A model generated the notes under the pieces. The model was not told where the DNA came from and made no database searches. It was given only the letters and a program-made list of their open reading frames with translations. A DNA stretch of 64,000 nt from Eledone cirrhosa (lineage: Eukaryota), in contig OZ024742.1 in assembly GCA_964016885.1 (NCBI GenBank), forward strand, positions 125,178,001 to 125,242,000, given 5' to 3'. Both the position numbers and the translations under genes were made by a program. Below are positions 3,587-52,146 of the stretch, piece after piece. Each line of letters begins with the position of its first letter. The stretch's first letter is position 1.

Positions 3587-6500
3587 TGCATTTATCTTGC
3601 TTTATGTTTATACGAGTTATCACCAAGTCACAACCAGTGACCTCAAGAGACAACTAGGTCCGCCATGTTCAAGAAAGAACACACATATTCACACATGCAT
3701 CCTTAGTGTTTAGACTTGTGATGTACTTATATTGACAGGATCTTCCTTAGTATATGGGCAGTTCCCATTAGTACTATCTTTTGTATTTCTCCTATACGCG
3801 GGTTTCCTGGGATTTGCGATAAGTAGTCGTTAGACCCCTTAGGTATCATTCCCAGAGCGCCTACAACCACTGGTATTGTTTTAGTTCTCAATTTCCACAT
3901 TTTTCCAATTTCTATCTCCAGGTCCTTATACTTGCTCAATTTTTCAAATGTTTTTATAGATACATTCTTGTCTATTGGAACAGACATATCAATTAGCAGG
4001 CATACCCTCCTTTGAAAGTCCTTCAATATTATATCAGGTCTATTTGCATCTATTTTTCGGTCTGTTTGGATGCTAAAGTTCCACAAGATTGAGATGTGAT
4101 CTTTTTCAAGTATGGGAGGTGGTTGATGCTCCCACCAATTCTTTTGATGGGGCAGGTCAAAATGCTTGCACATTATCCAATGTATGTATTGTGCAGCTCT
4201 GTCATGCCTGTTTAGGTATTCGGTTGGAGCTATAGGACTGCACATAGACACTGATCTTGTGCGGATATAATCAGTCCTTCAGTCTCCGATTTCAGTCCAG
4301 AGGATGCCAACCACTGATGGGTTAAAGTTTTGTCAACATCAGGATTGTTAGCTCGCTCTGGGTATTTTCCATACAGAGGCTTTTCTTGCCATTTCTTAGC
4401 CAGTTTCTGTAGCAGTTCTTTCTTTGCAGTTACTTTTACCTGCTTTGCTTTTTCTGTGTTTTCCATTTCAGCAGTAAATGGGACTTCTGAAATTTGTAGT
4501 CCATTACTGTATCTTTGTGCATCTTTTGTAATGGAATATGATCTTTTGATGCTTTCGTGTTTCAAAACGAGTTTGATCATCCAATCATGTGATTCCCTTA
4601 GATATGTGGATAATCCAATTGTTGCAGTTTTCAACGCAATGTCTAACTGGATTAACCCACGTCCTCCTTCTTTCCTAGGGAGATATATTCTATCTATGTC
4701 TGCCTTAGGGTGATGCATTCTGTGCATGGTTAAGAATTTTCGAATTTTTGTATCGAGCCTACGGATCTCTGTGCTTGACCAGTTGATGACATTGTAACTG
4801 TAGGTTACTACTGGTATGGCAAGCGTGTTTATGGCATCGATCCTATTCCTTGCATTCAATTCCGTTCTTAAGATTGCTCTTAGTCTGCGGTAACATTCCT
4901 TCCTTATCCTTTCCCTCATTGTCGAGTGCTTGATTCCGTCTCCTTCACAAACACCTAGATATTTGTACGTTTGTTCTTGATCAAGCTCTCTTATCACGTT
5001 CCCCCGATCAAGATTAATGTCTGAACTCTTCAGCAGCTTTCCTCTGGTGAACGTTGCTTTGGCGCATTTATCCAGTCCAAACTCCATTTTAATGTCATCA
5101 CTGAACTGCTTCACAGTGGATAATAGCCCTTGCAATTGTTCATCATTTTTTGCAAATAGTTTCAGGTCATCCATGTAGAACAGGTGATTAATGGTTTTGT
5201 CATAGACTCTATATCCATGTTTTGTTTCATTGAGCATTTTACTTAATGGTATAAGTGCGATGCAGAATAAAAGCGGTGATAAAGAGTCACCCTGAAAAAT
5301 TCCACAATTAATGTTAACTTCTCCAGCTTCCAGTGATTTTGTTTCATTATTCAAAAGGAGTGTCGTTCTCCATGTCCTCATACTGAATGACAAAAACCTC
5401 CTGATAACGGGGGATATTTCGAAAATCTCTAAAAATTTTTCAATCCAACTGTGTGGCAAACTATCAAATGCTTTTTTATAATCTATCCAAGCAATCGATA
5501 GAATTTTGTGTCTATTATGACAATCTTCCAGTATCATTTTGTTAACCAGAAGCTGATCCTTACAGCCATACGAGCCTCGTTTACACCCTTTCTGCTCAAT
5601 GGGAAATAGGTCATTTGTTATCAGGTGGTCATATGTGTATTCAGTTAGGACTGATGTTAAAATTTTATACATTGTGGTCAAGCAGGTTATCGGTCTGTAA
5701 TTTTTGGGATTGTTTGTCTCATCATTCTTCGGTAGCAGGAATGTAATGCCGTTAACTAGCCATGATGGTATCTTTTCTGGCTCCTTAACTATTTCATTGT
5801 AAAGTTGGGCTAACAGCTCATGAGACTCTGTGAAGGCATTTATCCAAAAGTTTTGTATTTTGTCTTTTCCTGGGGATTTCCATTTGCTGGTTTTTCTTAG
5901 AGCCAAGCGCAGCTGTTCAACTGTTATATTTTCCCATGTTTGTTCTTCAAGGTGAGCTGTTTCTTTCATTTGTCTGTCTATCCATGGGGCATGTATGTTA
6001 TGAACTTTTTCTTCGGCCCAGATCTTTTCCCAGAATTCTTGCACTTCCTCCTTGGGTGGTATTGATTTAGCAGTTATTGTTGACTTACCAATTTTTCTGT
6101 AGAAGTTTCTTTGGTTGTTTTTGAACATATTATTGTCCTTATAGAATCTAGATCGTTTCTCAAAGCGCCTTATACGAGCAGCTTTGGCCGACACTTTTTG
6201 CTTGATTGTTTCTATCAGCATGTCTATGTCACATGTTGATCTTATACTGTACTTTTTTTTCAATTTTCTAAGTTTAGTTTGTTTAACATGTTCACCTACT
6301 TTATAGTTTGTTAAAATTTCTATGTCAGATCGGAGAAGGTTTATTTGGCGATTGATGTTATCTTGCCAAGTAGATTTCTTGTGGGAATTCCTTTGTTTTT
6401 TCATCTTCACTCCACATAAGTGAGTGATGACTTTAGCCGATGCATAATAGAGATGATTTAAGTCAGTAATGCTTAGTTTGTTTGTGATGATAATGTTTTT

Positions 6501-7360
6501 GAGAATTATGTTAGTCTTGTGTATTATCTTTTGGTTCTGTTTGGAGTTCTGGATCTTAGGGAGGGTGTCTCGTTCCCCCATGTCAGATTCTTTCATTTTC
6601 ATCCATTCGATCATAATTTCATCCTTCAAGTTGGCAAGTTCATTCTCATTCATTTCTTTATCATTTACGATCTCATTATTTTCATTTGGAGTTTCATCCT
6701 GAGCATGCACTCCCTCCACTTTTTCGCTCCTTTCTTTAATTTGTTCTGTTGCCAGTGATTCCGCCCCAACTCTGGGATTCGAAGTGTTACAGTTTACCTC
6801 GTTTTCACTGACACATGCTTCATTTTCCCTTCGCTGACTTTGTGCTACTAGCTTGATCTGATCAATTTCTATATCAGTTAGTAACTTTTTTCTTACAATA
6901 TTTCTTCGTATATTGGCTAGTTTGTTACTGTCAATATAGCCTCTGTTTTCGGGATGTTTCTTTTTCCAGTTGATATATGTTTGCTCTGTATTCGATGTAT
7001 TTGATGGGTAGTACATGGCAGTGTAGAAAGCCTCAAGGACTTCTTTATTATCTTCCCTTGACCATTTTTCTCTCTTTTTCTTTGGATTTCTTGGTGGTGA
7101 GCATGGAGGGCCAACAGTAGGAGTATTCCGGTTATGGGAGGTCTCCAGCTCCGAAGTGATGGGAAGGTTTGAACCATTAGCTGATTTTTCGACCCCAGTC
7201 TGGTTCCTCTCTGAGGGACGCGGCCCTTTTTTACCCGGGTGACGGCCGATCCGGTATGAGATTTCATCATTAGACATCTACTTTATTTTGTCGCGTTTTA
7301 TCCTTATCCGCCAAGGGGTAATCTTTTCGTGTTACCACTTCTAGAACGTGTTACCACTTC

Positions 7361-13520: not shown

Positions 13521-13553
<33 letters not shown>

Positions 13554-13740
13554 GATAATTTAATATATCAACTAACATAAGCGCACAGATGCACGCCCAT
13601 GCCAGCAAATACACAGGTTATGTCATAGTACCTAGGTGGTTCAATGCAGGAGAATGCAGAACAATAATATAAAGGACGTAAAATAAGAAAATATTTTTTT
13701 TTTTAAATTTTAAAAAAATTTTTTTCTTACTTAAATTTTC

Positions 13741-13822
13741 ACTCCAACTAATTAGTTTCTGCAATGGGATAAAGACAGTTACGTAATCCAACTGTCGAGA
13801 ATTCATTGCGTCATCAGGGAGT
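13741..13822 (-). ncRNA. Type I hammerhead ribozyme, family 1
   Basis: ACTCC-CTGATGA-C-GCAATG...CATTGC-A-GAAA-CTAATTAG-TT^GGAGT: stem I ACTCC/GGAGT, stem II GCAATG/CATTGC with inner GACAGTT/AACTGTC hairpin, palindromic stem III, GUU site. Confidence 0.9.
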
Positions 13823-14297
13823 CTATTCTCAGTTAAGTCTCCAGGCAATGCGCGGACACTGGCGGCTCATATAAAAATAATAATAATTCGGTAGATCGAA
13901 CAGCTTGCGAGGACTGGATTCTATGTACCGAAATTCTCACTGCTTCAAGTCAAATGGCCGATTCTAAAGAATCAATCACGTGACACAGAGGCTAGTTAGA
14001 AGGAATGGGATGGTAAGATGACTGACGCCTACTAACACCCCCAAAAAAATTTTTTTAGAAGTGGTTTTGACAAGTTTGCTCGACAAATCAGTGATTTGGA
14101 GATAAATATAGATAATTTAATATATCAACTAACATAAGCGCACAGATGCACGCCCATGCCAGCAAATACACAGGTTATGTCATAGTACCTAGGTGGTTCA
14201 ATAGTGGAGAATGCAGAACAATAATATAAAGGACGTAAAATAAGAAAATATTTTTTTAAAAAAATTTTAAAAAAATTTTTTTCTTACTTAAATTTTC

Positions 14298-14379
14298 ACT
14301 CCAACTAATTAGTTTCTGCAATGGGATAAAGACAGTTACGTAATCCAACTGTCGAGAATTCATTGCGTCATCAGGGAGT
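14298..14379 (-). ncRNA. Type I hammerhead ribozyme, family 1
   Basis: Same motif as 13741-13822, 557 nt away. Confidence 0.9.
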
Positions 14380-14527
14380 CTATTCTCAGTTAAGTCTCCA
14401 GGCAATGCGCGGACACTGGCGGCTCATATAAAATTATTGCAGAAACTAATTAGTTGGAGTGAAAATTTAAGTAAGAAAAAAATTTTTTTTAAATTTTTTT
14501 TAAAAAAATATTTTCTTATTTTACGTC

Positions 14528-14665
<138 letters not shown>

Positions 14666-16494: not shown

Positions 16495-18117
<1,623 letters not shown>

Positions 18118-18737: not shown

Positions 18738-19758
18738 GGGGAAAAGAGAATGAATATTATAGAGGAGAAATAGTCTAATGAGGTCTGTAACTTGAGGAGA
18801 GTCCATGGATCCCATCGTTATATCGAATAAGTTGTTATATGTGTTTCTTGTCCAGTGTTCTTCATGGAAGTTTAGTAAGGTTTTTCTAGCGTGAGTTATG
18901 ATGTTGATTTCCTCAGTAGATAAATCCTATCTATTTCTGGCGAAGATCAGTGCTTTGTTTAAGAGAATTGTAGATATCGAAGAATAGCAAGAATCGATGT
19001 CGAATTGTATGAATGAAGCTGAGTTTTTATTCACTATTCTTAGTGAACCACTCAATAACCTGGGAAGTGTTATCCCATAATGGAAGTGTTACACATTTTC
19101 CAATTTGCGGAATGATTCGATCAATAATTTTCTTGCTCATAGTACCGATATCAGATTTTGATGGGCATATCAGTCTAATAGATGGTTTCGAATTAAAGTC
19201 AGATTTATGGTTCTTCAGGTTGAAGTGCGGGTTTTTAGGTGTGAAAGTCTCTGTCCTATCTTCAATGTGGAGTTATTTTACTATAGCACATGATATGTTG
19301 TTCAAGGGTGTCAGTGCGGTGGTGCTGGTTTTCTTATAGTTTTTTCTAAGTTCTTTATAAACGAACTGGTTATACTTATCGATGTCCATATGGTATAGAT
19401 TACCAGTTTTGTCAGAATGGACATGGACCTTGTTTGAACTTTTCAGTTGCAGAAGGGTAGATAGAGTCTAATTCCTTTTGGAATTCAGATTTGTGTTTAC
19501 TGAACCTTACGTTTTTAATTATGTTCAGTAGGGCGCTCTCAAAATGTTCAAGTTGAATATTATGAGGAGGATTTTTGTATGTGTTGAATCCATAGCGGTA
19601 CTTCTTTTCATTTGTATTGGTTTGTTGTCAAAATGATAGTCTCTCCATCGCATTCTGCTAATAAACTGGTTAGGTTTTTGTATGAGCACGAGTAGATATT
19701 CGTCTTTAGGTGGAATCGGAATATTCTTCAACGAAGTACCCAAATATTGTTTTTCCAT
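18738..19758 (-). mobile_element. Naiad PLE, inverted 5' portion (ATG to RT motif B')
   Basis: MEKQYLGTSLKNIPIPPKDEYLLVLIQK..FISRMRW N-terminal motif; ends in an inverted copy of about 19770-19893. Confidence 0.85.
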
Positions 19759-19764
19759 TGTGAC

Positions 19765-21700
19765 GCAAGAACAACACTGGACAAGAAACACATATAACAA
19801 CTTATTCGATATAACGATGGGATCCATGGACTCTCCTCTAGTTACAGACCTCTTTGGACTATTTCTCATCTATAATATTCATTCCTCTTTTCCCTACCTC
19901 AAAAGTCGTCTTTATCGGGATGATTGTCTATTGATATCTAACAATCTTAGCAATTCTAATATAGAGAAAAAAAAACAAATGAGAAAATTCCTCAAGGACT
20001 ATTGCAACCTTAACATCACCTTTGAAAACACCTCAAAAGTAGCTAACTTCCTTGACGTTACCTTAGACCTCTCTACGAATATTTATCAACCTGACCAACC
20101 AGAATCTACACTATGTACGTTCACGCTCTAACCACCCTGGCTCTATACTAAAAAACTTAGTATATAACATATCTCTTAGACTTTCTAAATTATCTTCCAA
20201 TGAGGATATATTTTATAAAAATGCACCCTTCTACAACGAAGCCCTAACTAGAAGTGGATATAAAGAAAACATTTCATATATCCCAAACACTACTATGGAC
20301 CATACTACTAAACCTAGCAAAAACTACAAACACCAAAAAATACCATCGAAACAAATGCCTAATGGGGTCATTCCTATCACACCAAACAACCGAAAAACCA
20401 CAACAACTATTACTACCCGATCTATGACCAACGTTAACAACTCACATATGAATACCAAACATTCAACCTCTCATAATCTACCCAATAATAACACCAAATA
20501 CAACCACTGCAATTTACCAACTTCCACAAATACAAAAGCTAATCATAAGAACTCATCTAGAACACAGCACATTAATATAAGTGGGAATAAGAACTTAACT
20601 AAAAACCGCAAAAGAAACAGAACATGGTACAACGCACCCTTCAACCTGCAAACTATTGGACAAATCCCCAAAAAATTCTTCGAAATTCTACATAAACATT
20701 TTCCACCAAACCACAGATACCACCAAATATTTAACAGGTATACTGTTAAATTCTCATACTCTACATCAAACAATCTCCAGCAAAAAATAAGCAACTACAA
20801 CATTTATAAATTTAAAAATAATATGACCACACCACCACAACATAATTTAAATAAGACTTCACCTTTTAAAAGGACAAATAATACAATCCTTCAACCTTGA
20901 AAACACAACACTCAAATCACCAACACAAAAACAACATAACACGAAATCACAACATAACCCTAGCACTAAATTACCCACAAAGCAATATTCATTCTCTCGC
21001 TAACATTAATTACAATAACAATAGCTCAATGATTAATGAGAATTATGTAGGTACCCCCAACAACCATCTTACGTATGGTTGTAATTGCAGAAATAGAAGC
21101 GTTTGCCCCTTAAATGGCAACTGTTTGATTAATCATATAATATATAAATGCACTGTGTCTACAACTGACTCCAACAAATCATATATAGGATCTACATCGA
21201 ACACATTTAAGAAAAGATATTACGCACATTCCAGTAGCTTTAACAATACTAAACTAGCTAACACCACATCTTTAGCTGAAGCAGTAAATAACTATAAAAA
21301 GAAAAGATATAGTGGGATACCATACTGCAAAGGGAACAGGAGAGAATGCAGATTATTTTCGGGGAATATCTTGGAAATTACTAAATCTAAGGACGATTTA
21401 TTGAATAAAATACAGGAATTGATTATAGCTTGTAATCACCGTATACGAAAAACATTTAAGTACTATAAACCTAATTAAACATTCTAAATAGCAACTCACT
21501 ATAATTCTATGTAACGTATCATTTGTTAGTATCCCCTTCCCCACATTATACGCCTTCCTGTTTATTTATTTTTTTTTAACCTTTTAATTGTTTAGCTTCC
21601 ATAGATTCATGCGTTACTGACTAAGGGAATCAAGGTACATAACCAGCTGTAATTGCATGGGTATACATGTATCTATTTATGTATGATAAAAGAATATATA
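19765..21700 (+). mobile_element. Naiad PLE, 3' portion (RT, linker, GIY-YIG endonuclease, partial 3' UTR), frameshifted
   Basis: FDITMGSMDS..LYRDDC..NFLDVTLDL; RKRNRTWYNAPF; CNCRNRSVCPLNGNC..IIY..SYIGST..FKKRY..LLNKIQE..CNH (ORFs 19682-20131, 20295-20900, 20897-21478). Confidence 0.88.
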
Positions 21701-21930: not shown

Positions 21931-22026
<96 letters not shown>

Positions 22027-22221
22027 GAGAGATAATTTAATATATCAACTAACATAAGCGCACAGATACACGCCCATGCTAGCAAATACACAGGTTATGT
22101 CATAGTACCTAGGTGGTTCAATGCAGGAGAATGCAGAACAATAATATAAAAGACGTAAAATAAGAAAATATTTTTTAAAAGAAATTTTTTAAAAATTGTT
22201 TACTTACTTACTTAAATTTTC

Positions 22222-22298
22222 ACTCCAGCTAATTAGTTTCTGCAATGGGATAAAGACAGTTACGTAATCCAACTGTCGAGAATTCATTGCGTCATCAG
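22222..22298 (-). ncRNA. Inactivated family 1 hammerhead
   Basis: GUU site mutated to GCU and a 15-nt deletion removes the 5' strand of stem I. Confidence 0.75.
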
Positions 22299-22767
22299 TT
22301 AAGTCTCCAGGCAATGCGCGGACACTGGCGGCTCATATAAAAATAATAATAATTCGGTAGATCGAACAGCTGGTGAGGACTGGATTCTATGTACCGAAAT
22401 TCTCACTGCTTCAAGTCAAATGGCCGATTCTAAAGAATCAATCACGTGACACAGAGGCTAGTTAGAAGGAATGGGATGGTAAGATGACTGACGCCTACTA
22501 AAACCCCCCCAAAAAATTTTTTTAGAAGTGATTTGGCAAGTTTGCTCGACAAATCAGTGATTTGGAGATAAATATAGATAATTTAATATATCAACTAACA
22601 TAACCGCACAGATGCACGCCCATGCTAGCAAATACACAGGTTATGTCATAGTACCTAGGTGGTTCAATGCAGGAGAATGCAGAACAATAATATAAAAGAC
22701 GTAAAATAAGAAAATATTTTTTAAAAATAATTTTTTTTTAATTTTTTACTTACTTACTTAAATTTTC

Positions 22768-22849
22768 ACTCCAACTAATTAGTTTCTGCAATGGGATAAA
22801 GACAGTTACGTAATCCAACTGTCGAGAATTCATTGCGTCATCAGGGAGT
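22768..22849 (-). ncRNA. Type I hammerhead ribozyme, family 1
   Basis: Intact core and stems I-III. Confidence 0.9.
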
Positions 22850-23188
22850 CTATTCTCAGTTAAGTCTCCAGGCAATGCGCGGACACTGGCGGCTCATATA
22901 AAAATAATAATAATTCGGTAGATCGAACAGCTGGCGAGGACTGGATTCAATGTACCGAAATTCTCACTGCTTCAAGTCAAATGGCCGATTCTAAAGAATC
23001 AATCACGTGACACAGAGGCTAGTTAGAAGGAATGGGATGGGATGGTAAGATGACTGACGCCTACTAAGCAGTGAGAATTTCGGTACAATAAATCAAGTCC
23101 TCGCCAGCTGTTCGATCTACCGAATTATTATTATTTTTATATGAGCCGCCAGTGTCCGCGCATTGCCTGGAGAATTAACTGAGAATAG

Positions 23189-23270
23189 ACTCCCTGATGA
23201 CGCAATGAATTCTCGACAGTTGGATTACGTAACTGTCTTTATCCCATTGCAGAAACTAATTAGTTGGAGT
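23189..23270 (+). ncRNA. Type I hammerhead ribozyme, family 1
   Basis: CTGATGA at 23194-23200, GAAACTAATTAGTT^GGAGT; predicted cleavage after 23265. Confidence 0.9.
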
Positions 23271-23749
23271 GAAAATTTAAGTAAGTAAGTAAACAATTTT
23301 TAAAAAATTAAAAAAAAAAAATATTTTCTTATTTTACGTCTTTTATATTATTGTTCTGCATTCTCCTGCATTGAACCACCTAGGTACTATGACATAACCT
23401 GTGTATTTGCTAGCATGGGCGTGCATCTGTGCGCTTATGTTAGTTGATATATTAAATTATCTATATTTATCTCCAAATCACTGATTTGTCGAGCAAACTT
23501 GCCAAAACCACTTCTAAAAAAATTTTTTTTGGGGTGTTAGTAGGCGTTAGTCATCTTACCATCCCATTCCTTCTAACTAGCCTCTGTGTCGCGTGATTGA
23601 TTCTTTAGAATTGGCCATTTGACTTGAAGCAGTGAGAATTTCGGTATATAGAATCCAGTCCTCGCCAGCTGTTCGATCTACCGAATTATTATTATTTTTA
23701 TATGAGCCACCAGTGTCCGCGCATTGCCTGGAGACTTAACTGAGAATAG

Positions 23750-23831
23750 ACTCCCTGATGACGCAATGAATTCTCGACAGTTGGATTACGTAACTGTCTT
23801 TATCCCATTGCAGAAACTAATTAGTTGGAGT
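23750..23831 (+). ncRNA. Type I hammerhead ribozyme, family 1
   Basis: Intact motif 561 nt after the previous copy. Confidence 0.9.
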
Positions 23832-24310
23832 GAAAATTTAAGTAAGTAAGTAAAACATTTTTTAAAAATTTCTTTTAAAAAATATTTTCTTATTTTACGT
23901 CTTTTATATTATTGTTCTGCATTCTCCTGCATTGAACCACCTAGGTACTATGACATAACCTGTGTATTTGCTAGCATGGGCGTGCATCTGTGCGCTTATG
24001 TTAGTTGATATATTAAATTATCTATATTTATCTCCAAATCACTGATTTGTCGAGCAAACTTGCCAAAACCACTTCTAAAAAAATGTTTTTTGGGGTGTTA
24101 GTAGGCGTCAGTCATCTTACCATCCCATTCCTTCTAACTAGCCTCTGTGTCACGTGATTGATTCTTTAGAATCGGCCATTTGACTTGAAGCAGTGAGAAT
24201 TTCGGTATATAGAATCCAGTCCTCGCCAGCTGTTCGATCTACCGAATTATTATTATTTTTATATGAGCCGCCAGTGTCCGCGCATTGCCCGGAGACTTAA
24301 CTGAGAATAG

Positions 24311-24392
24311 ACTCTCTGATGACGCAATGAATTCTCGACAGTTGGATTACGTAACTGTCTTTATCCCATTGCAGAAACTAATTAGTTGGAGT
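24311..24392 (+). ncRNA. Type I hammerhead ribozyme, family 1
   Basis: Intact core; stem I ACTCT/GGAGT (one G-U). Confidence 0.88.
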
Positions 24393-24456
24393 GAAAATTT
24401 AAGTAAGTAAAAAATTTTTGTAAAGTTTTTTTTTTAAAATGCTTTCTTATTTTACG

Positions 24457-24515
<59 letters not shown>

Positions 24516-25436
24516 GAGAAGAAGTTTATGAAACGGAAATGCGGGTATAAAGAATTTATTAGGTAACAATTGTTTCTATAGTGTATGGGTTACCTATACC
24601 TCGCTATTAGAATAATATAAACATATTATCATAAACCGAAGATACACTGTAAGCAAACATACCATGTCGTCAGACCTTTGCATTGGAATGATATGAAAAT
24701 ATTTTATACACTAGATAAAAGAGAAAGAAGGAGATAGGAAGAGAAGGGGAAGAGGGAAGTGAGTAAGGGGGAGGGAGTCCTAGGATTTAAGACTGTCAGA
24801 CTAGTAGAGATTGTAAGGAGAGAATGTTTTGGCAGCAGTTAGCTTAATGAGGCGTGTTAGGGTTGGTGGGGGAAGTAAATTCTTCTAGTGGTGTTGTTTG
24901 AACAAAATTTAGTTAAAGGGGTCAAAGTGGTACAGAGTTACAGACAAGTTATTGGGGCTATTATAGTAGCAGGTTATTTCTAAAGGGGTTCAGAAAACAG
25001 TGTTTAGTACTATTATTATAGAAAGCCATATCCTGTGTATAAACATATAAAACAGAAATTTGCAAACGGTGGTGTAAAAAGGTAACATTATATGCATTTA
25101 AAAAAAGAAAAAGTCGTTTTCAAACGATGGCTACAGTACAGTGAACGTTCAATTTTGCTGTTCAAAAGTTTGTTTACCGACGTTAAAATGCAGTATATCT
25201 CCATATTGCATAATTTACAGAATCGATGATTTTGCTTATATGCAGGCGCAGGTGCAATAATTTGCCAATCAAGGGAGAATGCTTGATTGTTCCTCCGGAG
25301 CTGCCAGGCTTTATCGGCAAGGGTTGTTACGGAGCGCATTTTCTCGTGCCTGATCGAAGATCGATGTTGGTATAGGCGAGCTTTGAAAGAATTTACGGTA
25401 CATCCGACGTAATACCATTTGTTGGTTCCGGAATTG
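24516..25436 (-). mobile_element. Naiad PLE 3' fragment (GIY-YIG C-terminus plus 3' UTR/pLTR)
   Basis: ORF 25088-25339: TTLADKAWQLR..WQII..CKLCNMEI..LLNSKIE..CSH, preceded by YVG..FKARL. Confidence 0.82.
24561..24677 (-). ncRNA. Type I hammerhead with long stem II insertion in Naiad 3' UTR
   Basis: AGGT-CTGACGA-C-ATGGTATG...CATACACTAT-A-GAAA-CAATTG-TT^ACCT-AATAAA. Confidence 0.78.
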
Positions 25437-26459: not shown

Positions 26460-26520
26460 GTATATTTCTAATGACTTGAATTTGTATTTCATTGTTTTAA
26501 CTTATATATATATATATATA

Positions 26521-27520
26521 GCGAGTGATTATTAAGACAGCGGCCAGCTTACTACCATAGTAGCAGTCATGGGCAAATATTGCTCGACAAATGAATTGGA
26601 GATAATTATAAGGAAGTTATATCTAGTAACATTTATATACACACAGATGCATATCAATGCTAGCAAATATATAGGTTTTGTCTTATTAACAATGTGGTTC
26701 AATGCATGGGGTTGCAGAACAATAATATGAGAGACGTAAAATAAGAAAATTATAAAATTAACTTACTTACTACAATGGCTTGGAATCCAGTCCACGCTTT
26801 ACTCCATTCCAGAAACTAATTAGTTGGAAGTGATTTTTTAGTAAGTTAATTTTATAATTTTCTTATTTTACGTCTCTCATATTATTGTTCTGCAACCCCA
26901 TGCATTGAACCACATTGTTAATAAGACAAAACCTATATATTTGCTAGCATTGATATGCAACTGTGTGTATATAAATGTTACTAGATATAAATTCCTTATA
27001 ATTATCTCCAATTCATTTGTCGAGCAATATTTGGCCATGACTCCTACTATGGTAGTAAGCTGGCCGCTGTCTTAATAACCACTCGCTTTCCACTGATTGA
27101 CCTCGATGTCACGTGATTGATTCTTTTTGAATTTGCCACAGACGAGGAGGCAGTGATTTTCTCAATGGCTTGGAATCCAGTCCACGCTTTGCTATTTCCA
27201 TTCCACTGAATTATTTTTTTAATAAGTTTCCAGTGTCCTCGCTATGCCTGGAGACCTATACGGAAAAAGACTTTCCTGATGACGGAATGATTTTCTGTGT
27301 TTCTTCGGAAAATATATTTACTCCATTCCAGAAACTAATTAGTTGGAAGTGATTTTTTAGTAAGTAAGTTAATTTTATAATTTTCTTATTTTACGTCTCT
27401 CATATTATTGTTCTGCAACCCCATGCATTGAACCACATTGTTAATAAGACAACACCTATATATTTGCTAGCATTGATATGCATCTGTGTGTATATAAATG
27501 TTACTAGATATAAATTCCTT
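26521..27520. mobile_element. HHR tandem-repeat (retrozyme-like) family 2, head-to-head array
   Basis: Diverged homolog of family 1; minus arm 26521-26772, plus arm 26773-27520, 519-nt period; (TA)n on both sides. Confidence 0.85.
27270..27350 (+). ncRNA. Type I hammerhead ribozyme, family 2
   Basis: ACTTTC-CTGATGA-C-GGAATG-ATTTTCTG..CGGAAAAT..CATTCC-A-GAAA-CTAATTAG-TT^GGAAGT. Confidence 0.9.
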
Positions 27521-27532
27521 ATATATATATAT

Positions 27533-34323: not shown

Positions 34324-37300
34324 TTACAGATATATACTCAGAGTCGGCCCATTCACTCGGGCCATTCTTGCTTCTCTCACCCACCTTTCAACAAAATGCT
34401 GGGAAGAGAGCACTTCCCTCTCTACTCTGATTTTCCTTTTCAAATGAAATTTGAAAAAGTCAATCAGAGCATCACCGAAGAGGTAAGTGCTCGTCTTCAG
34501 CCCTTTCAAACGTGTCCACCATACTATCTCTTTCGCCATGGCCACCAGACAGATAAAAACTGCCTGCCCTTCCCGGCTAAAGGAGGAGGGCGGGGCAATC
34601 CTCACGATGGACTCAGATGATAGCTGGATCCGTCCTAAACGCGACAGCAGGTGTTCGACATAAACCCTCAAGTCAGCAATTTTCGGACACTGGACGAGTG
34701 CGTGCAGGACGGTTTCGTCGCCCTGCGCGCATCTCGGACATGCCCGGCTGACGGCACCTCCATGCCTGTAGAGTTTATCCCGAACTGGCAAGGCTCCTCG
34801 GTAGCACTGCCAGGCCAGAGATTTCTGGAAGTTGTCCATAGGCCCTGGCCCGAAAGTTCTTCCGAAGAGATTGGCTAGTTGATTTTCGTCGACGCCTAGA
34901 GTTTCCCCAAGTACGTCGTCGCTCTTCCCCTCCACTAATCCTCTATAGAACGCCGAGGTGGAGTTTCCACCGATCACATTGCTCGATTGGTCGAGGGCTG
35001 TGAGCGCCTGAAGACATTCCAGTCTCCAGGCGCTCCCTCTCGGTCTTCGCTTGACCCAGGACTGCAGCTCCGTCAAGGAAACGAGCTGGGGAAAAACGCG
35101 TCTAGCAAACGGCGACCACACCTGATCACCGTCGAGGAAGAGGTGGAGATGTCGTAGCCTGAGCGCGTGCCTGCGCATCATCAGCCACGGCATGCCCAGC
35201 CCTCCACGTAGCGGGTGTTGACAACAGATGGACCGCCTGACCATCGGAGCACGTCCCTTCCACAAAAAGCGAAAGAGCAAACGCTCCAGCGCAGTCAGGC
35301 GAGGCTTAGGACAAGGTACGACGGTTAGGCGGTAGCAGATGACAGACGCGATGTACGCGTTAGCCACCTCCGCTCGACCTTTCAGGGATAGCTTCCTCTC
35401 CGCCCATTTCTGGGTGAGAGAAGCCACCCTGCTCGTCACCTCGTCCCAGTTTTTGTCCGTCTGGAGGTCCGGACCGAACCAGACCCCTAGCAATTTAACC
35501 GGTCCGTCCGTCCAGCGCCCGACGACGCTGTTGGACGGCATGGACCTGCCTCTCCAGGTGCCGAGCTGCAGGCCCACTGACTTTTCCTGGTTGATCATTG
35601 CTCCTGTCACCGCTTCGTATTCTCTTAGTGTAGTGCCGATCGCCTCGATGTGTTTGGCGTTCGACACCACTACGGTGACATCGTCCGCATATGCTGACAC
35701 GGATCTTCCGCATCCTAGTTCGCGCGGGACTCCCCTCAACGTCTCCAGTTTGTGCAGTAATGGCTCGAGAGTCAATACGTACAAGAGGGACGAGAGGGGA
35801 CATCCTTGGCGGACCGAGCGCATGATGTTGAACGGTTCCGACAGGTGACCGTTCACTCTCACCACAGAGCAGATGTTGCTGTGCATGGCAGCGATCCAGC
35901 CTCTGAAGACGGGCCCAAAGCCAGCCGCCCTCAGGACTGCCGCTAGGTAACGATGGTCGACCCTATCGAAAGCTTTCGACTGATCTAAATTGATCAAGGA
36001 CCCACCCGTGCCAGGTTCCCTAGCTACCCTCTCTACGATGTATCGCATGAGGTGGAGGTTGTCGTGGATGGATCTGTCGGGAATGGCGCATGTCTGCGCC
36101 TCTCCCACCAGACCACCAACGACAAGCGCCAACCTCTTTGCTAGCACCTTGGCCAAAATCTTAAACTCTGTGTTTAGCAGAGTTATGGGCCGGAAATTGT
36201 CTATGTTATCCCCCTTGTTCGGATCCTTTCTCAGCAGTGCCACCGCTCCTCGGCTCACAGAACTGGGAATTCTCCCGTTCTGTTGCCAGTTGCAGTAGAC
36301 GTCCGCCAAGAGGCCTCCGAACAAGTCTGGCATCTGTACGTAAAGTTCATAGGGCAGACCATCCAAACCAGGCGATTTACCCCTTGTGCAGCCAGTCATT
36401 GCCTCCCGTACTTCAGCGGCTGTTATCGGCTTTTCGCAACACCTCGCCTCAGTGGCCGAGAGCCGCGGCAGTCCGTCGAGGTAGACACTAAAGTCCATCC
36501 CTCTACCCGGCTCCCCGCTGCCCCCGAACAGCTGAGCGAAGTGTCGCTGAAAAGCTTCACACATTTGCCCGGGATCGAGTAGCATGCGCCCGTCGTGGTC
36601 CACCAAAGACCGGATCGTGGCTTTGTTGCCACGACGCGCCTCCGCCACTCGGGCCCATTGAACGGCTTTCGTCCCCTCGTGTCTGAGAGCACGCACCCTA
36701 GCTCTGACAACGCAGCCTTCGTGCTTTGCATTGAAGAATTGGTCAAGGGCCAATTTCGCCGCAAGCACGTCGGTCGCAATGCCTTTGCTAAGCGCCTCGT
36801 CTAATTTTCTAACTAGTTCTCCCTCTGCTCTATTTTTCTCTATTGCTAAAGCCTTACTAAACCTAATCGATTCTATTCTAATCGCTCTTTTCAGAGCAAA
36901 CCACCACTTGTTGTTGACGATGGCCCCCGTCAACGCCCGCTTAACTAGTTCGCTAATCCGGTCTCTGTAGGCCTTGCGCGCTGGTAAGGACGCGTTTAGC
37001 TTCCAGTAGCCGGGTCCTCGTCTATGAAGCCTATCTAAGTCAAGCACACAGGTCACGAATTTGTGGTCCGTGTAGCTGACTATCTTGAATTGTGGACAGC
37101 CTATGCTAGACCTATCTATTTCCCTACAAAATACTCTATCTAGATATGATCTGGATGACCCTATGCGGTTTGTCCAAGTCCACATTGGCACATTCGGAAA
37201 ATCCAATCGGTACCTGTCAGACAGTTCAAAACGCCTGAGCAGGTTGGTGAGGCTCTTGCACCCTCCACCCCTATCCGCTAATCCCACACAGTCCCAGCGT

Positions 37301-37743
37301 GCATCTAAGATCCCGTTCCAGTCGCCCACTAACACTAAAGAGCGGGACGTTCCAAGAAAGGTCTCCAGACGCCGGAAGAAATCAGGCCGCCCTGCTCCTG
37401 TCGGGGCATAGACGGCCACTAGCCTGAAAGCTTGCCCGTCTCCGCTGGTCACGTCCAGCACCACCAGCTTACCCTCTGGGTCCAGGAAGATGGCCCGTAT
37501 GGCGAGATCCAAACCTCTCCGAAAAATCACAGCAACTCCTCCACCCGATCCAGGACGGCTGGGAGATGCGTACACATCGTAGCCGCCGAAGATCGGTGCG
37601 AAGGCCCGTGCTTCGGAGATTCTGGTCTCGCTGATGGCCACTACATCTATGTTTAGTGACCTGAGGTCGTTGAGCAGGTGACCCTGCTTCCATGACGACC
37701 CCAAGCCACGCGCATTTATGCTGCCTATTCTGAGTGAGGTCAT
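34324..37743 (-). CDS. L1/Tx1 ORF2: AP endonuclease, reverse transcriptase, C-terminal zinc finger (1139 aa)
   Basis: SINARGL, ISETR, VYAP, GDWN, YLDR, TDHK; KSPGLDGLP, FRPITLLN, QGCPLS, YADD; CPRC..ETVLHALVQC. Confidence 0.95.
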   Translation of the reverse strand: MTSLRIGSINARGLGSSWKQGHLLNDLRSLNIDVVAISETRISEARAFAPIFGGYDVYASPSRPGSGGGVAVIFRRGLDLAIRAIFLDPEGKLVVLDVTSGDGQAFRLVAVYAPTGAGRPDFFRRLETFLGTSRSLVLVGDWNGILDARWDCVGLADRGGGCKSLTNLLRRFELSDRYRLDFPNVPMWTWTNRIGSSRSYLDRVFCREIDRSSIGCPQFKIVSYTDHKFVTCVLDLDRLHRRGPGYWKLNASLPARKAYRDRISELVKRALTGAIVNNKWWFALKRAIRIESIRFSKALAIEKNRAEGELVRKLDEALSKGIATDVLAAKLALDQFFNAKHEGCVVRARVRALRHEGTKAVQWARVAEARRGNKATIRSLVDHDGRMLLDPGQMCEAFQRHFAQLFGGSGEPGRGMDFSVYLDGLPRLSATEARCCEKPITAAEVREAMTGCTRGKSPGLDGLPYELYVQMPDLFGGLLADVYCNWQQNGRIPSSVSRGAVALLRKDPNKGDNIDNFRPITLLNTEFKILAKVLAKRLALVVGGLVGEAQTCAIPDRSIHDNLHLMRYIVERVAREPGTGGSLINLDQSKAFDRVDHRYLAAVLRAAGFGPVFRGWIAAMHSNICSVVRVNGHLSEPFNIMRSVRQGCPLSSLLYVLTLEPLLHKLETLRGVPRELGCGRSVSAYADDVTVVVSNAKHIEAIGTTLREYEAVTGAMINQEKSVGLQLGTWRGRSMPSNSVVGRWTDGPVKLLGVWFGPDLQTDKNWDEVTSRVASLTQKWAERKLSLKGRAEVANAYIASVICYRLTVVPCPKPRLTALERLLFRFLWKGRAPMVRRSICCQHPLRGGLGMPWLMMRRHALRLRHLHLFLDGDQVWSPFARRVFPQLVSLTELQSWVKRRPRGSAWRLECLQALTALDQSSNVIGGNSTSAFYRGLVEGKSDDVLGETLGVDENQLANLFGRTFGPGPMDNFQKSLAWQCYRGALPVRDKLYRHGGAVSRACPRCAQGDETVLHALVQCPKIADLRVYVEHLLSRLGRIQLSSESIVRIAPPSSFSREGQAVFICLVAMAKEIVWWTRLKGLKTSTYLFGDALIDFFKFHLKRKIRVEREVLSSQHFVERWVREARMARVNGPTLSIYL

Positions 37744-37778
37744 GTTTAAAATAGAGTGGAAAAGATGGGAAAGACCAC

Positions 37779-39875
37779 TTACCGTACTTTTGGTAGAGGA
37801 GGGATGGTTTTTACATCCCTTTTCACTTGATCGTCTGGTGAAGGGACCGTTGAATCGTCCCTTCGGCTGGTCGTCGGCTCTTCTAAGAGAATGTCTGAAT
37901 ATACTCTTCGATTGATGGTTCCTCCTAGGTCCCTGAAATCACCAACTGCGTTGGGGAATTTCGTTTTAATGTTTGTGTATTGTTTCTGTGCTATTTTTAG
38001 CAGTCTTATGTTAGTTGGCGTTTTGATTGGTGCTGGTATTATGTAGTCCTGTTGTGAAATGTCTGTGTGTTCAATTATGTAAGTCATTAGTTTCTTGTTG
38101 TGTGTGTTTATTGCCGTGCATTTGTTTTTCTGGGGGTGGGGTGTGGTTCTGCTATTTTCTTGTCGTTGTTGCTGGGTGTGTGTGTTTTGTTGTTGTGTTT
38201 GCGATGTTGGTGCTTGTGGTGGTGGTGTTGAAGGTGTTGTTGGCGGTGGGGTTGTCGCCGGTGGTGATGGTGGTGCTGGTGTGGGTGGTGATGGTGTTGG
38301 TGGTGTTGCTGCTGTGGGTCTCTTTGCAGTAGACTTTACCCTTTTCTCATTTCTTTCCTCCCTTTTCAAAGGCGACGATGCGCTGCTTCTGCGTTTGTGC
38401 CTTCTTGCGACCTTTTGCCATCCCTCTCCCACCTCACACTCCATGTCTGATTCTGTAAGGTCGGGGAGGGGTACCAGCTCCACTCTTTCACTTGTTGTTG
38501 TTGGTGATGTTTGCACTGGAGTCTCTGTTGCAGCTGCATTTGGTATTGCTGTTGTTGTTGTTAATATTTCCACTGCTGCTGCTGTCTTTGATTTCCGTGG
38601 AGTGGGTATGGGTGCCACGGACCTATCGTTCCTGGTTGCCGCTTGTCCTGTTGCTGGTAGCCGTGGAGCCGGATTCGGAAGGAGGGGGGTTTTCTCCTTT
38701 CTCAGGGTCTTCTCGTTGCAGAAGGCCCTGAGGTGAGTCTTCGATCCACAGCGAAAGCATTTCGGGCGTTTGCCCTCAACACTTATGGGCAGTTGAGTGC
38801 CGTTATCGAAGTCTATCACATTCGGGATAGCTTCGATGCACTCCTGGTTGGTTTGGATTAGCATCTCAATGGAGGAGCCGACCCAATCTTCTCTTACTTT
38901 TTTCTGTACTTGCAGTACAGTTGTTTTGTCCTCGATTCCGACGAGGACAGACGCGGCCAGCCAAGAAGGGGTCATTCCGGGGGGGACGTGGGTCAGTTTG
39001 ACCCTCACAATTTTTTGCCCGCAGTAGGAGGGCACCAACACCATTTCCTCGCTCCTTAGGGTCACTACTGATTGGGCCTTTGCCTCCTGGGGTGTGGCAA
39101 AAAGTACGTCTACGGTGGCGTATTTTTTGCCTCGGGTGATGTGCGTTTTCCTCTGCCACACAGACCCCAAGGCTTTTTGTATTTGGGCCTCTGTGGCTCT
39201 TTCCACCCTACGTGATTTTGTACTTACTGTACGGTACGTGACCGTACAGTGCTCTTGGGTTTCGAAAAAATTTTTCGCTGCCTTGCAGATTGCTCGGTGT
39301 CCGTTCTTTGTCACCATCTTCTTCGCTTCCTCTAATTCCTCATTTGTTATGAGGATTGTTTCCAAGTTTTTCGCAATACCTGCAAATGACATTGGTTTTT
39401 CTCTGCTGTTGTTGTTGTCGTCAGAGCTGCTGGTACTTTTGTTGTTGCTGCAGGTACTACGACTACTGCCTCCGCCGCTGTTGCTGTGGTTGTTGTTGGT
39501 GTTGCTGCTGCTAATGCTGTTGTTGTTTATGCTGCTGGTGATGCTGTTGCGGCTGCTACTGTTGTTTTCATTGTCACTGTTGCTGTTGTTATTACGGCTG
39601 CTACTGCTATTATTCCTGACGTCAGACGAATGAACTGGGTTTTCGTATTTCCCGCACACCTGTTTCGTCGCTGTCGTCGTCGTCGTGGAGAAACCTTGCA
39701 CGCTTTGCACGAGACTTTTCTTTTCTTTCGTCGCTTGCGAAAGAGAAGGGAGGGAGAGAGACACATTTAAATAAGGGAGGGAGAGAGACAATCTTCTCTC
39801 TGCTGTAGTGATGATTGAGGAAGAAGAAGACGGAATGAGTGGGAGTGACGTATGAAATTTCTTTTTCGTAGCCAT
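37779..39875 (-). CDS. L1/Tx1 ORF1: nucleic-acid-binding protein with CCHC zinc knuckle (698 aa from first ATG)
   Basis: CFRCGSKTHLRAFC; Ser/Asn- and Pro/Thr-rich tracts; lies directly upstream of ORF2. Confidence 0.9.
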   Translation of the reverse strand: MATKKKFHTSLPLIPSSSSSIITTAERRLSLSLPYLNVSLSLPSLSQATKEKKSLVQSVQGFSTTTTTATKQVCGKYENPVHSSDVRNNSSSSRNNNSNSDNENNSSSRNSITSSINNNSISSSNTNNNHSNSGGGSSRSTCSNNKSTSSSDDNNNSREKPMSFAGIAKNLETILITNEELEEAKKMVTKNGHRAICKAAKNFFETQEHCTVTYRTVSTKSRRVERATEAQIQKALGSVWQRKTHITRGKKYATVDVLFATPQEAKAQSVVTLRSEEMVLVPSYCGQKIVRVKLTHVPPGMTPSWLAASVLVGIEDKTTVLQVQKKVREDWVGSSIEMLIQTNQECIEAIPNVIDFDNGTQLPISVEGKRPKCFRCGSKTHLRAFCNEKTLRKEKTPLLPNPAPRLPATGQAATRNDRSVAPIPTPRKSKTAAAVEILTTTTAIPNAAATETPVQTSPTTTSERVELVPLPDLTESDMECEVGEGWQKVARRHKRRSSASSPLKREERNEKRVKSTAKRPTAATPPTPSPPTPAPPSPPATTPPPTTPSTPPPQAPTSQTQQQNTHTQQQRQENSRTTPHPQKNKCTAINTHNKKLMTYIIEHTDISQQDYIIPAPIKTPTNIRLLKIAQKQYTNIKTKFPNAVGDFRDLGGTINRRVYSDILLEEPTTSRRDDSTVPSPDDQVKRDVKTIPPLPKVR

Positions 39876-40088
39876 GTTTTTTTGTTTAAAATGAAATTTT
39901 TGGTACAAAACCCCAATAACTGGTTATTTAACCCCGAAGGGCCAAATAACGGACAGAAAGACCCCTCTCACGAGGAGGAGGGTGTCTTTATCAACAATTT
40001 GGTTCAAGTTTTAAACAATTTACAATTGTTTTAACGGTTAAAAATTACTATACCTTACAGAGCCGAGCCTCCGTCAACCATGGCATTC

Positions 40089-41220: not shown

Positions 41221-44200
41221 GATTTCTTTATTAACCACAAGGGTTTACATAAAGAAGACATTAAGGACAGTGCAGGACAATGCAGGACGGTACAAATGGG
41301 CATTTCTGCGTGTAAAAAACAAAAACAGAGGATGTAACAAAAATAACAATGAAAATAACAATGAAATATTCCCCAATAGGGGCGAGACTTCGGAGGGACA
41401 TTTGTGGAGAAAGCCCAGTAAAAAGCCACAATGACCCTGACCACCAAGGCAAGTGCCCTCTCCCAGTTTTCCACCTTTAATTTACAGATATATACTCAGA
41501 GTAGGCCCATTCACTCGGGCCATTCTTGCTTCTCTCACCCATCTTTCAACAAAATGCTGGGAAGAGAGCACTTCCCTCTCTACTCTGATTTTCCTTTTCA
41601 AATGAAATTTGAAAAAGTCAATCAGAGCATCACCGAAGAGGTAAGTGCTCATCTTCAGCCCTTTCAAACGTGTCCACCATACTATCTCTTTCACCATGGC
41701 CACCAGGCAGATAAAAACTGCCTGCCCTTCCCGGCTACAAAGGAGGGCGGGGCAATCCTCACGATGGACTCAGATGATAGCCGGATCCGTCCTAAACGCG
41801 ACAGCAGGTGTTCGACATAAACCCACAAGTCAGCAATTTTCGGACACTGGACGAGTGCGTGCAGGACGGTTTCGTCGCCCTGCGCGCATCTCGGACATGC
41901 CCGGCTGACGGCACCTCCATGCCTGTAGAGTTTATCCCGAACTGGCAAGGCTCCTCGGTAGTACTGCCAGGCCAGAGATTTCTGGAAGTTGTCCATAGGC
42001 CCCGGCCCGAAAGTTCTTCCGAAGAGATTGGCTAGTTGATTTTCGTCGACGCCTAGAGTTTCCCCAAGTACGTCGTCGCTCTTCCCCTCCACTAATCCTC
42101 TATAGAACGCCGATGTGGAGTTTCCACCGATCACATTGCCCGATTGGTCGAGGGCTGTGAGCGCCTGAAGACATTCCAGTCTCCAGGCGCTCCCTCTCGG
42201 TCTTCGCTTGACCCAGGACTGCAGCTCCGTCAAGGAAACGAGCTGGGGAAACACGCATCTAGCAAACGGCGACCACACCTGATCACCGTCGAGGAAGAGG
42301 TGGAGATGTCGTAGCCTGAGCGCGTGCCTGCGCATCATCAGCCACGGCATGCCCAGCCCTCCACGTAGCGGGTGTTGACAACAGATGGACCGCCTGACCA
42401 TCGGAGCGCGTCCCTTCCACAAAAAGCGAAAGAGCAAACGCTCCAGCGCAGTCAGGCGAGGCTTAGGACAAGGTACGACGGTCAGGCGGTAGCAGATGAC
42501 GGACGCGATGTACGCGTTAGCCACCTCCGCTCGACCTTTCAGGGATAGCTTCCTCTCGGCCCATTTCTGGGTGAGAGAAGCCACCCTGCTCGTCACCTCG
42601 TCCCAGTTTTTGTCCGTCTGGAGGTCCGGACCGAACGAGACCCCTAGCAATTTAACCGGTCCGTCCGTCCAGCGTCCGACGACGCTGTTGGACGGCATGG
42701 ACCTGCCTCTCCAGGTGCCGAGCTGCAGGCCCACTGACTTTTCCTGGTTGATCATTGCTCCTGTCACCGCTTCGTATTCTCTTAGTGTAGTGCCGATCGC
42801 CTCGATGTGTTTGGCGTTCGACACCACTACGGTGACATCGTCCGCATATGCTGACACGGATCTTCCGCATCCTAGTTCGCGCGGGACTCCCCTCAACGTC
42901 TCCAGTTTGTGCAGTAATGGCTCGAGAGTCTATACGTACAAGAGGGACGAGAGGGGACATCCTTGGCGGACCGAGCGCATGATGTTGAACGGTTCCGACA
43001 GGTGACCGTTCACTCTCACCACAGAGCAGATGTCGCTGTGCATGGCAGCGATCCAGCCTCTGAAGACGGGCCCAAAGCCAGCCGCCCTCAGGACTGCCGC
43101 TAGGTAACGATGGTCGACCCTATCGAAAGCTTTCGACTGATCTAAATTGATCAAGGACCCAGCCGTGCCAGGTTCCCTAGCTACCCTCTCTACGATGTAT
43201 CGCATGAGGTGGAGGTTGTCGTCGATGGATCTGTCGGGAATGGCGCATGTCTGCGCCTCTCCCACCAGACCACCAACGAAGAGCGCCAACCTCTTTTCTA
43301 GCACCTTGGCCAAAATCTTAAACTCTGTGTTTAGCAGAGTTATGGGCCGGAAATTGTCTATGTTATCCCCCTTGTTCGGATCCTTTCTCAGCAGTGCCAC
43401 CGCTCCTCGGCTCACAGAACTGGGAATTCTCCCGTTCTGTTGCCAGTTGCAGTAGACGACCGCCAAGAGGCCTCCGAACAAGTCTGGCATCTGTACGTAA
43501 AGTTCATAGGGCAGACCATCCAAACCAGGCGATTTACCCCTTGTGCAGCCAGTCATTGCCTCCCTTACTTCAGCGGCTGTTATCGGCTTTTCGCAACACT
43601 TCGCCTCAGTGGCCGAGAGCCGCGGCAGTCCGTCGAGGTAGACACTAAAGTCCATCCCTCTACCCGGCCCCCCGCTGCCCCCGAACAGCTGAGCGAAGTG
43701 TCGCTGAAAAGCTTCACACATTTGCCCGGGATCGAGTAGCATGCGCTCGTCGTGGTCCACCAAAGACCGGATCGTGGCTTTGTTGCCACGACGCGCCTCC
43801 GCCACTCGGGCCCATTGAACGGCTTTCGTCCCCTCGTGTCTGAAAGCACGCACCCTAGCTCTGACAACGCAGCCTTCGTGCTTTGCATTGAAGAATTGGT
43901 CAAGGGCCAATTTCGCCGCAAGCACGTCAGTCGCAATGCCTCGTCTAATTTTCTAACTAGTTCTCCCTCTGCTCTATTTTTCTCTATTGCTAAAGCCTTA
44001 CTAAACCTGATCGATTCTATTCTAATCGCTCTTTTCAGAGCAAACCACCACTTGTTGTTGACGATGGCCCCCGTCAACGCCCGCTTAACTAGTTCGCTAA
44101 TCCGGTCTCTGTAGGCCTTGCGCGCTGGTAAGGACGCGTTTAGCTTCCAGTAGCCGGGTCCTCGTCTATGAAGCCTATCTAAGTCAAGCACACAGGTCAC

Positions 44201-51980: not shown

Positions 51981-52146
51981 GAAGAAGAAGACGCACGAGG
52001 TGACGGAGGTCATGAAATCGCTCCCGTAAGTTTTGAATTTTTAACATATTTAAATCATTTGTGAAATAACAACTCTTAGTACAAATGCTACGTAAAGCAC
52101 CCGGCTTGAGCCCCAAAAAATTCGGACCCAAAATATATTGTTATAA

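Follow-up and report, generated by a model that had tools for sequence, protein, structure and literature searches.

A dispersed non-coding hammerhead family in Eledone cirrhosa with the insertion footprint of Penelope-like elements

Main

The window analysed here, a 64,000-nt stretch of the Eledone cirrhosa genome (contig OZ024742.1, positions 125,178,001–125,242,000), contains at 22030–24462 a non-coding array whose units each carry a hammerhead ribozyme motif. What kind of element is this, from what RNA was it copied, and by which enzyme? By its genomic definition the element is a non-LTR retrozyme, a known class and not a new one. Our main reading, to which we assign a probability of about 0.75, is that this dispersed non-coding hammerhead family is a non-autonomous retrozyme copied from one RNA by a Penelope-type (probably Hydra-clade) enzyme. 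That Penelope-like elements (PLEs) copy retrozymes is proposed, but not demonstrated, in the available text of PMC7229834, PMC4209133 and 10.64898/2026.07.22.740005. Our search of the literature on octopus and cephalopod retrozymes, and on Penelope together with hammerheads, returned no description of this family or of its footprints; the supplements of PMC7229834 and of the preprint, and part of PMC4209133, may list relatives, and the squid genome paper lists 235 Rfam hammerheads.

Two arms pointing apart

A BLAST search of the window with the unit at 23266–23826, together with (TA)n on both sides, delimits an insertion (22030–24462, −/+) of two arms that point apart. The left arm (22022–23067, minus strand) consists of a long 3′ end, which extends about 200 nt beyond the cut site and meets (TA)n around 22030, a single 544-nt unit and a 5′-truncated unit beginning at unit position 272. 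The right arm (23066–24466, plus strand) consists of a 5′-truncated unit beginning at position 362, two full 561-nt units (23266–23826 and 23827–24387) and a short 3′ end, which extends about 78 nt beyond the cut site and meets (TA)n at about 24462. The arms overlap by 2 nt at 23066–23067 and are flanked by target tracts at 21934–22026 and 24462–24500, the latter in common with a truncated Hydra-type PLE, which lies on the minus strand and meets the tract with its 3′ end. The preliminary description had reported tandem repeats of about 560 nt; the unit length holds (557–561 nt in the window), but the arrangement is not a plain tandem, as the arms lie head to head and one unit measures 544 nt because of a 17-nt deletion near 22295. 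The unit has a GC content of 36% and no match to a PLE protein better than E 0.78. Consistent with the earlier view of the units as ORF-less, the longest ATG-initiated ORF in the 561-nt unit is 27 amino acids, even over three rounds of the unit; with stops in every frame, translation by rolling round a 561-nt circle was rejected.

A second insertion at 13550–14531 is built in the same way, with head-to-head arms and (TA)n. Its main arm (13545–14436, minus strand) contains a long 3′ end at (TA)n, a 557-nt unit and a 5′-truncated unit, with hammerhead cores at 13817 and 14374, and its inverted arm (14436–14535, plus strand) is only 100 nt long and comprises the 3′ half of a hammerhead and a short 3′ end at (TA)n. 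A sister family (family B, as distinct from family A above), overlooked in the preliminary description and with a unit of about 525 nt that is about 70% identical to family A, is represented at 26520–27528 (plus strand) by an inverted piece (26520–26767), a hammerhead core at 27276 and a long 3′ end at (TA)n. Retrozymes are recognized by at least two consecutive complete hammerheads, and the window holds runs of three (23194, 23755 and 24316) and two (13817 and 14374), in units that are non-coding and free of LTR structure, as judged apart from PBS and PPT.

Elsewhere in the window, long, near-intact ORFs of non-LTR retrotransposons (RVT_1) lie at 4230–7277 (−), 34324–39923 (−), 41691–46671 (−) and 53330–56755 (+); one of them carries an endonuclease of AP type together with an ORF upstream and is repeated about 7.15 kb apart. 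A tandem duplication with a period of 326 nt and 96% matches occupies 52143–52793.

A covarying hammerhead of PLE type

A descriptor scan of both strands of the window located six family-A hammerheads with a full core, one sister-family hammerhead (27276) and two looser matches. The six cores (CUGAUGA) lie at 13817, 14374 and 22844 on the minus strand and at 23194, 23755 and 24316 on the plus strand, and all six hammerheads have a 5-bp stem I, a 6-bp stem II with an inner hairpin and a GUU triplet, in agreement with the earlier account of their number, positions and parts, including GAAA. The predicted cuts fall after 23265, 23826 and 24387 on the plus strand, so placed that the 561-nt unit proposed earlier (23266–23826) is confirmed, and after 22773, 14303 and 13746 on the minus strand. 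The type I hammerhead at 23172–23287 (+; core 23194, predicted cut after 23265) comprises, from its 5′ end, an outer stem I, the loop-I strand GAGAAU, stem I, the core and an extra C, followed by stem II with the strand AUUCUC and the inner hairpin, an extra A, GAAA and a palindromic stem III. Further copies lie at 23733–23848 (+; core 23755, predicted cut after 23826), at 24294–24409 (+; core 24316, predicted cut after 24387), where U·G replaces C–G at the first stem I pair, beside the core, and at 22751–22866 (−; core 22844, predicted cut after 22773). A seventh family-A hammerhead (22207–22305, −) is broken, the 17-nt deletion having taken away stem I's 5′ strand as well as the loop-I strand.

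Neither of the two extra bases, the C that follows CUGAUGA and the A that precedes GAAA, had been noted in the preliminary description; both are present in 87 of 87 copies counted (55 distinct sequences, some copies being drawn from overlapping loci). Apart from the invariant A before GAAA, the motif is the PLE consensus CUGANGAH-G...C-GAAAN-palindrome-NUH with an open stem I; this A, outside the published consensus, may impair catalysis. Rfam returned no hammerhead family at E ≤ 1 within the window.

The stems of the hammerhead covary. Across 27 diverse hammerheads the predicted pairing is kept in 93.1% of cells, compared with 85.5% in shuffles and 36–49% with slid partners, and double changes number 60 versus 21 in shuffles, which are controls that ignore the relatedness of the sequences; all four Watson–Crick pairs occur at one position of stem II. 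This covariation argues for selection on the hammerhead at the RNA level. A candidate 6-bp pseudoknot between loop I and the internal loop of stem II is 84% paired, with five double-change cells and a double change in three of six pairs, one pair being mostly unpaired; we regard it as plausible. Compared with 100 shuffles, the complete unit folds better (z = −3.3), and a consensus fold of 15 units over their whole length has double changes in 19 of 109 pairs. Some of these helices enclose the long 3′ end, with upstream sequence pairing with sequence up to about 90 nt downstream, an arrangement that would fit a protein-binding domain reaching past the start site, by analogy with the anole PLE. 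Circular folding, under a model without pseudoknots, gave stem I a probability below 0.1 in 14 of 16 units, which hints that closed circles may be inactive.

The conserved sequence of the short 3′ end is itself predicted to pair with the hammerhead core (alignment A2, columns 75–82 with 508–514), and such an alternative pairing could silence the ribozyme in monomers or circles. Separately, at least ten other hammerhead types with a palindromic stem III were seen (at loci L014, L032, L060, L086, L087, L091, L096, L120, L134 and L147), in several of which two unpaired bases face each other at the foot of stem II; further PLE or retrozyme families may account for some of these types.

Copy number and unit diversity

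The preliminary description had proposed a count of genomic copies. In the 3.0-Gb genome, a 17-nt piece that covers stem III together with the cut site has 12,359 exact matches and its reversed control none, so the recurrence is not due to chance. A pattern for the 5′ core of the superfamily matches 10,268 times (control, 85) and the exact family-A core 1,821 times, giving a genome-wide motif count of about 10^4. These units form short arrays scattered over many chromosomes, and the many scattered copies exist alongside PLEs in the same genome, as is expected of retrozymes.

A position-ordered sample, taken from the first 100 of the 17-nt matches, yielded 60 loci, two of which are a duplicated pair. 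Hammerhead spacing in this sample was 522–571 nt in 21 of 22 cases. Across the genome, arrays of five units occur, as does one of seven or more at C7:66.87 Mb. Together with the loci of the top hits, the sample provided 69 distinct cut-to-cut units, which fall into 12 clusters at 92% identity; the clusters are 70–100% identical to the window unit and colinear with it round the whole unit, including the head-to-tail joint. Unit length thus ranges over about 520–570 nt in a non-coding, colinear family. Searches of sequencing runs found the unit in four runs of unspecified kind and, in four presumed-RNA runs, matches only to the low-complexity A/T tract.

The insertion footprint

Within the 60-locus ordered sample, (TA)4 lies within 320 nt of 77 of 79 terminal hammerheads. 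The distances fall largely into two bands (64 of 77), with 36 at 35–90 nt and 28 at 160–215 nt; some of the 13 terminal hammerheads outside both bands probably reflect internal TA runs. Family-A copies at the top-hit loci have fixed 3′ ends at unit positions of about 83 or 205 and variable 5′ ends, and family-B copies have fixed 3′ ends at 63 or 181 (with a reference offset of 6 nt) and again variable 5′ ends. The two fixed 3′ ends lie about 120 nt apart, and exact junctions between the long end and TA number 541. Among 30 loci picked solely for having a long end, the far end of the inverted arm was visible in 13, and all 13 used the short end; of the remainder, two are two-armed with a far end that falls outside the slice, 12 have one arm and three run off the slice.

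According to PMC8557442, PLEs insert as partial tandems, with a 5′ copy in inverted orientation and a tail on one side; PMC11167929 shows that this tail is the interval separating two internal start sites of reverse transcription. The Eledone insertions have the same components: a microsatellite target, two fixed 3′ ends, 5′ truncation, an inverted partner and a tail at one end. This genome-wide anatomy (TA target, two 3′ ends and inverted arms) supports the earlier suggestion of a retrozyme-like element mobilised by PLEs.

At one locus, L260, about 430 nt of unrelated sequence separates two retrozyme arms; by eye it resembles the ORF1 region of the non-LTR elements in the window.

A probable single template per insertion

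Sequence variants within loci bear on the nature of the template. In 32 of 33 cases among 34 family-A loci (105 segments), a variant that recurs in more than three loci was carried by every overlapping copy in both arms, and among 19 family-B loci this held for 12 of 12 recurrent variants. Lineage variants are thus fixed in all copies of a locus in 44 of 45 cases over both families, indicating one template per insertion. A further 54 variants in family A are private to single copies and behave as later mutations; only four of them are A>G, and scars of A-to-I editing are not claimed. The private variants that are shared between copies (11 in family A; 5 in family B, one of them A>G) are too few to reveal an A>G bias.

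From the fixed variants we infer a single-unit bottleneck followed by re-multimerisation, which would most simply be reverse transcription round a circle, a route already put forward in the literature (PMC4209133, PMC7229834). A young, homogeneous linear source would also yield part of the single-haplotype pattern.

The DNA also appears to retain a trace of cleavage. At 13 loci the head-to-head arms meet within 8 nt of the predicted cut site, seven of them with 0–1 nt between, whereas a control site about 20 nt upstream, queried with an identical pattern design, gave two loci; for this single control site the one-sided binomial probability is about 0.004, and 49 of 101 sampled copies contain both 11-mers. 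On the simplest interpretation, the 5′ end of some templates lay at the cut, in which case these stops would be an indirect DNA trace of cleavage in vivo; they could instead reflect pausing of the reverse transcriptase at the folded ribozyme. Most arms read through the junction, making cut-site stops a minority route, and (TA)n is joined straight to the cut site at about five loci (a count without a control), from which cut ends also appear to be a minority. At two of the loci, L272 and L274, one arm ran past the long-end position before stopping at the cut site; such arms fit a linear multimer equally well.

The strongest competing explanation starts from these arms. It keeps the PLE as mobiliser but makes the template a linear multimer, uncut or partly cut, with circles absent or a by-product and the hammerhead trimming 5′ ends only. 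[quoted passage not shown] Copying with 5′ truncation, however, can only shorten arrays, yet arrays of five and of at least seven units exist, and the nested lineage variants fixed across a locus (44 of 45) require the single-unit bottleneck and renewed multimerisation described above. We therefore consider a purely linear template unlikely, while taking it more seriously than the alternatives below.

Candidate mobilisers

The genome contains young, intact PLE ORFs of a 714-aa family, a 778–784-aa family and a third family. Each of the first two has a hammerhead of its own, ends in (TA)n and shows two 3′ ends (at about +41/+109 in the 714-aa family and about +51/+160 in the 778–784-aa family), and both carry RWK, DKT and CxCX5C, the marks of the Hydra clade (PMC8557442). 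The 778–784-aa PLE is nearest to the retrozyme in geometry and also has the extra C and the extra A, which is a resemblance only. A search with the unit profile against the terminal regions of the three PLEs gave no significant match (best score 2.8 bits, a value that at least 10 of 300 shuffles also attained), and against the 3′ regions of 205 endonuclease ends in 40 clusters, many of which end early at internal TA runs, nothing scored below E 0.036. Similarly, blastn of both units against the PLE1, PLE2 and PLE3 loci returned co-inserted retrozyme copies or non-significant scraps only. A likeness by eye of the long-end region to PLE2 was set aside as not significant in the profile search.

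PLE remnants also lie within the window. The 5′-truncated end of a Hydra-type PLE at 24565–25435 (−) carries its own hammerhead (core at 24673) with the extra C, the extra A, GUU and a palindromic stem III; it has its TA tract in common with the retrozyme array, and intact 778–784-aa PLE copies exist elsewhere in the genome. Further fragments with RT and GIY-YIG pieces lie at 247–912 (−), a relative of the young intact 714-aa family, at 17218–17607 (−) and at 19640–21478 (+). The third PLE family (L212:2680–2750) has no canonical hammerhead by scan; by eye it has a hammerhead-like fold, with CAGAAGA for CUGANGA, just before the short 3′ end, and its two 3′ ends are 75 nt apart.

Could the units instead be truncated terminal repeats (pLTRs) of a coding PLE elsewhere in the genome, the case named at the outset as fatal to the retrozyme reading? 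The PLE-type hammerhead and insertion pattern would fit, a published tree sets Xenopus retrozymes beside pLTRs (10.64898/2026.07.22.740005), and the many PLE families were sampled only in part, from 39,040 and 52,729 first-look candidates. Against it, none of 117 loci, examined for an RT plus GIY-YIG ORF flanked by the repeat, has the unit in terminal-repeat position to an ORF; the terminal repeats of the sampled PLEs lack homology to the unit. A PLE ORF lies in the slice at 19 of the 117 loci, three of them flagged by script as having no microsatellite gap, and by inspection two of these three have a TA tract at the junction. L200 (C1, about 36.631–36.633 Mb; 640–2400) is the only direct join: there the 3′ end of a 5′-truncated third-family PLE is joined head to head to an inverted retrozyme arm, with a short inverted scrap and no TA between them. 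It is possibly a co-integration of two RNAs and, as a single case among 117, names no mobiliser. In addition, the colinearity of the 12 clusters (70–100% identity) across the head-to-tail joint implies that the closed unit evolved as such. The pLTR explanation is thus largely refuted and, in our estimate, highly improbable, with descent from an ancient pLTR possible.

A satellite or other repeat that spreads as DNA, through unequal crossing-over or rolling-circle copying, and carries a vestigial hammerhead would explain tandem units that are homogeneous within a locus, but short arrays scattered across many chromosomes, fixed 3′ and variable 5′ ends, the pairing of long and short ends in two-armed copies, covarying RNA helices and stops at the ribozyme cut site leave this explanation a very small chance.

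A proposed cycle

We return to the retrozyme copied from one RNA by a Penelope-type enzyme, for which the following cycle can be proposed. The array would be transcribed by read-through, and the hammerhead, as predicted from its fold and from the indirect trace in DNA, would cut after GUU. Part of the monomers would then be ligated into circles, as suggested by published retrozymes and by the single-haplotype arrays. The PLE protein would bind the conserved structured domain spanning the long 3′ end, nick both (TA)n strands and initiate reverse transcription within the RNA from two sites, one for each strand, as the fixed 3′ ends and the anole work (PMC11167929) suggest. Each cDNA would cover zero to several units before stopping, either randomly or on reaching a cut 5′ end, and both cDNAs would finally be joined head to head, a process proposed here from the observed arms.

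A fuller version of this cycle, which we advance tentatively and consider possible rather than probable, is that the roughly 10^4 copies stem from a viroid-sized structured RNA replicon that is cut in vivo and circularised, with one Hydra-type PLE dimer reverse-transcribing a single circle from two fixed sites. If so, a pseudoknotted hammerhead variant with two extra bases flanking its core would cut in vivo, and the insertion scars would record the whole cycle, rolling through several units. It would also explain PLE insertion as tandem and inverted arrays, and the intact partner ORFs of the genome would make it the first retrozyme with a mobilisation open to in vitro reconstruction. In either form, the family provides countable DNA footprints for three steps that had been assumed, namely PLE-type two-site priming, one RNA template per insertion and ribozyme cleavage, and it breaks down into small parts open to testing, which are a 561-nt RNA, a (TA)n target and, in the same genome, intact PLE ORFs of 714–784 aa.

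Comparison with known systems

Like the non-LTR retrozymes of metazoans (PMC7229834; 10.64898/2026.07.22.740005), the Eledone element consists of non-coding tandem units with one type I hammerhead each, has a GC content below 50% and no LTR, and is present in thousands of copies in a genome with co-occurring PLEs. By contrast, (TA)n targeting, two 3′ ends, head-to-head arms and cut-site stops, all seen here, set it apart from the retrozymes described in the available text of those two sources. In other animals, tandem type I hammerhead repeats self-cleave to monomers that circularise; the Eledone unit may give rise to linear or circular RNAs as well, as the preliminary description suggested. 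It is longer than the 150–450-bp retrozymes of Cervera & de la Pena 2020 (PMC7229834), but the earlier impression that it is long for a retrozyme unit does not hold, as about 561 nt falls within the published range of 51–972 bp (Li, Clavereau & Pollet 2026, 10.64898/2026.07.22.740005). The same preprint matched 24 of 57 Xenopus families to known elements, whereas no sister pLTR was found here, and it reports in vitro cleavage for one of nine predicted dimers, the other eight remaining uncleaved.

The motif shares with PLE-type hammerheads (PMC4209133) the extra base between A9 and G10.1, the G10.1–C11.1 pair, a 6-bp stem II, a palindromic stem III and a 5-bp stem I. It differs from those described in the available text of that source in a further invariant A between C11.1 and G12, in a long stem II with an inner hairpin, in a 3-bp stem III with a tetraloop and in the candidate Watson–Crick pseudoknot between loop I and the internal loop of stem II. 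PLE hammerheads themselves have been described as weak or protein-assisted (PMC11167929, PMC4209133).

Non-autonomous Chlamys elements such as MRC1 (PMC8557442) offer a parallel as non-coding PLE passengers with multicopy head-to-tail insertions; as described there, the 3′ end of the Chlamys elements is similar to that of the autonomous partners and most of them have no hammerhead, whereas no partner similarity was found among the PLEs sampled in Eledone. Unlike PLEs, the Eledone unit has no ORF and no detectable homology to the PLEs sampled, and its tail of about 120 nt compares with 30–40 nt in PLEs of the available published text (PMC8557442, PMC11167929) and with about 68 and 110 nt in the local Hydra-type PLEs. 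In the manner of its insertion, however, the Eledone family is like the PLEs of those two sources, in targeting (TA)n, in its 5′ truncation, partial tandems and inverted 5′ partner, and in having a tail at one end, two start sites and a hammerhead just upstream of the 3′ ends.
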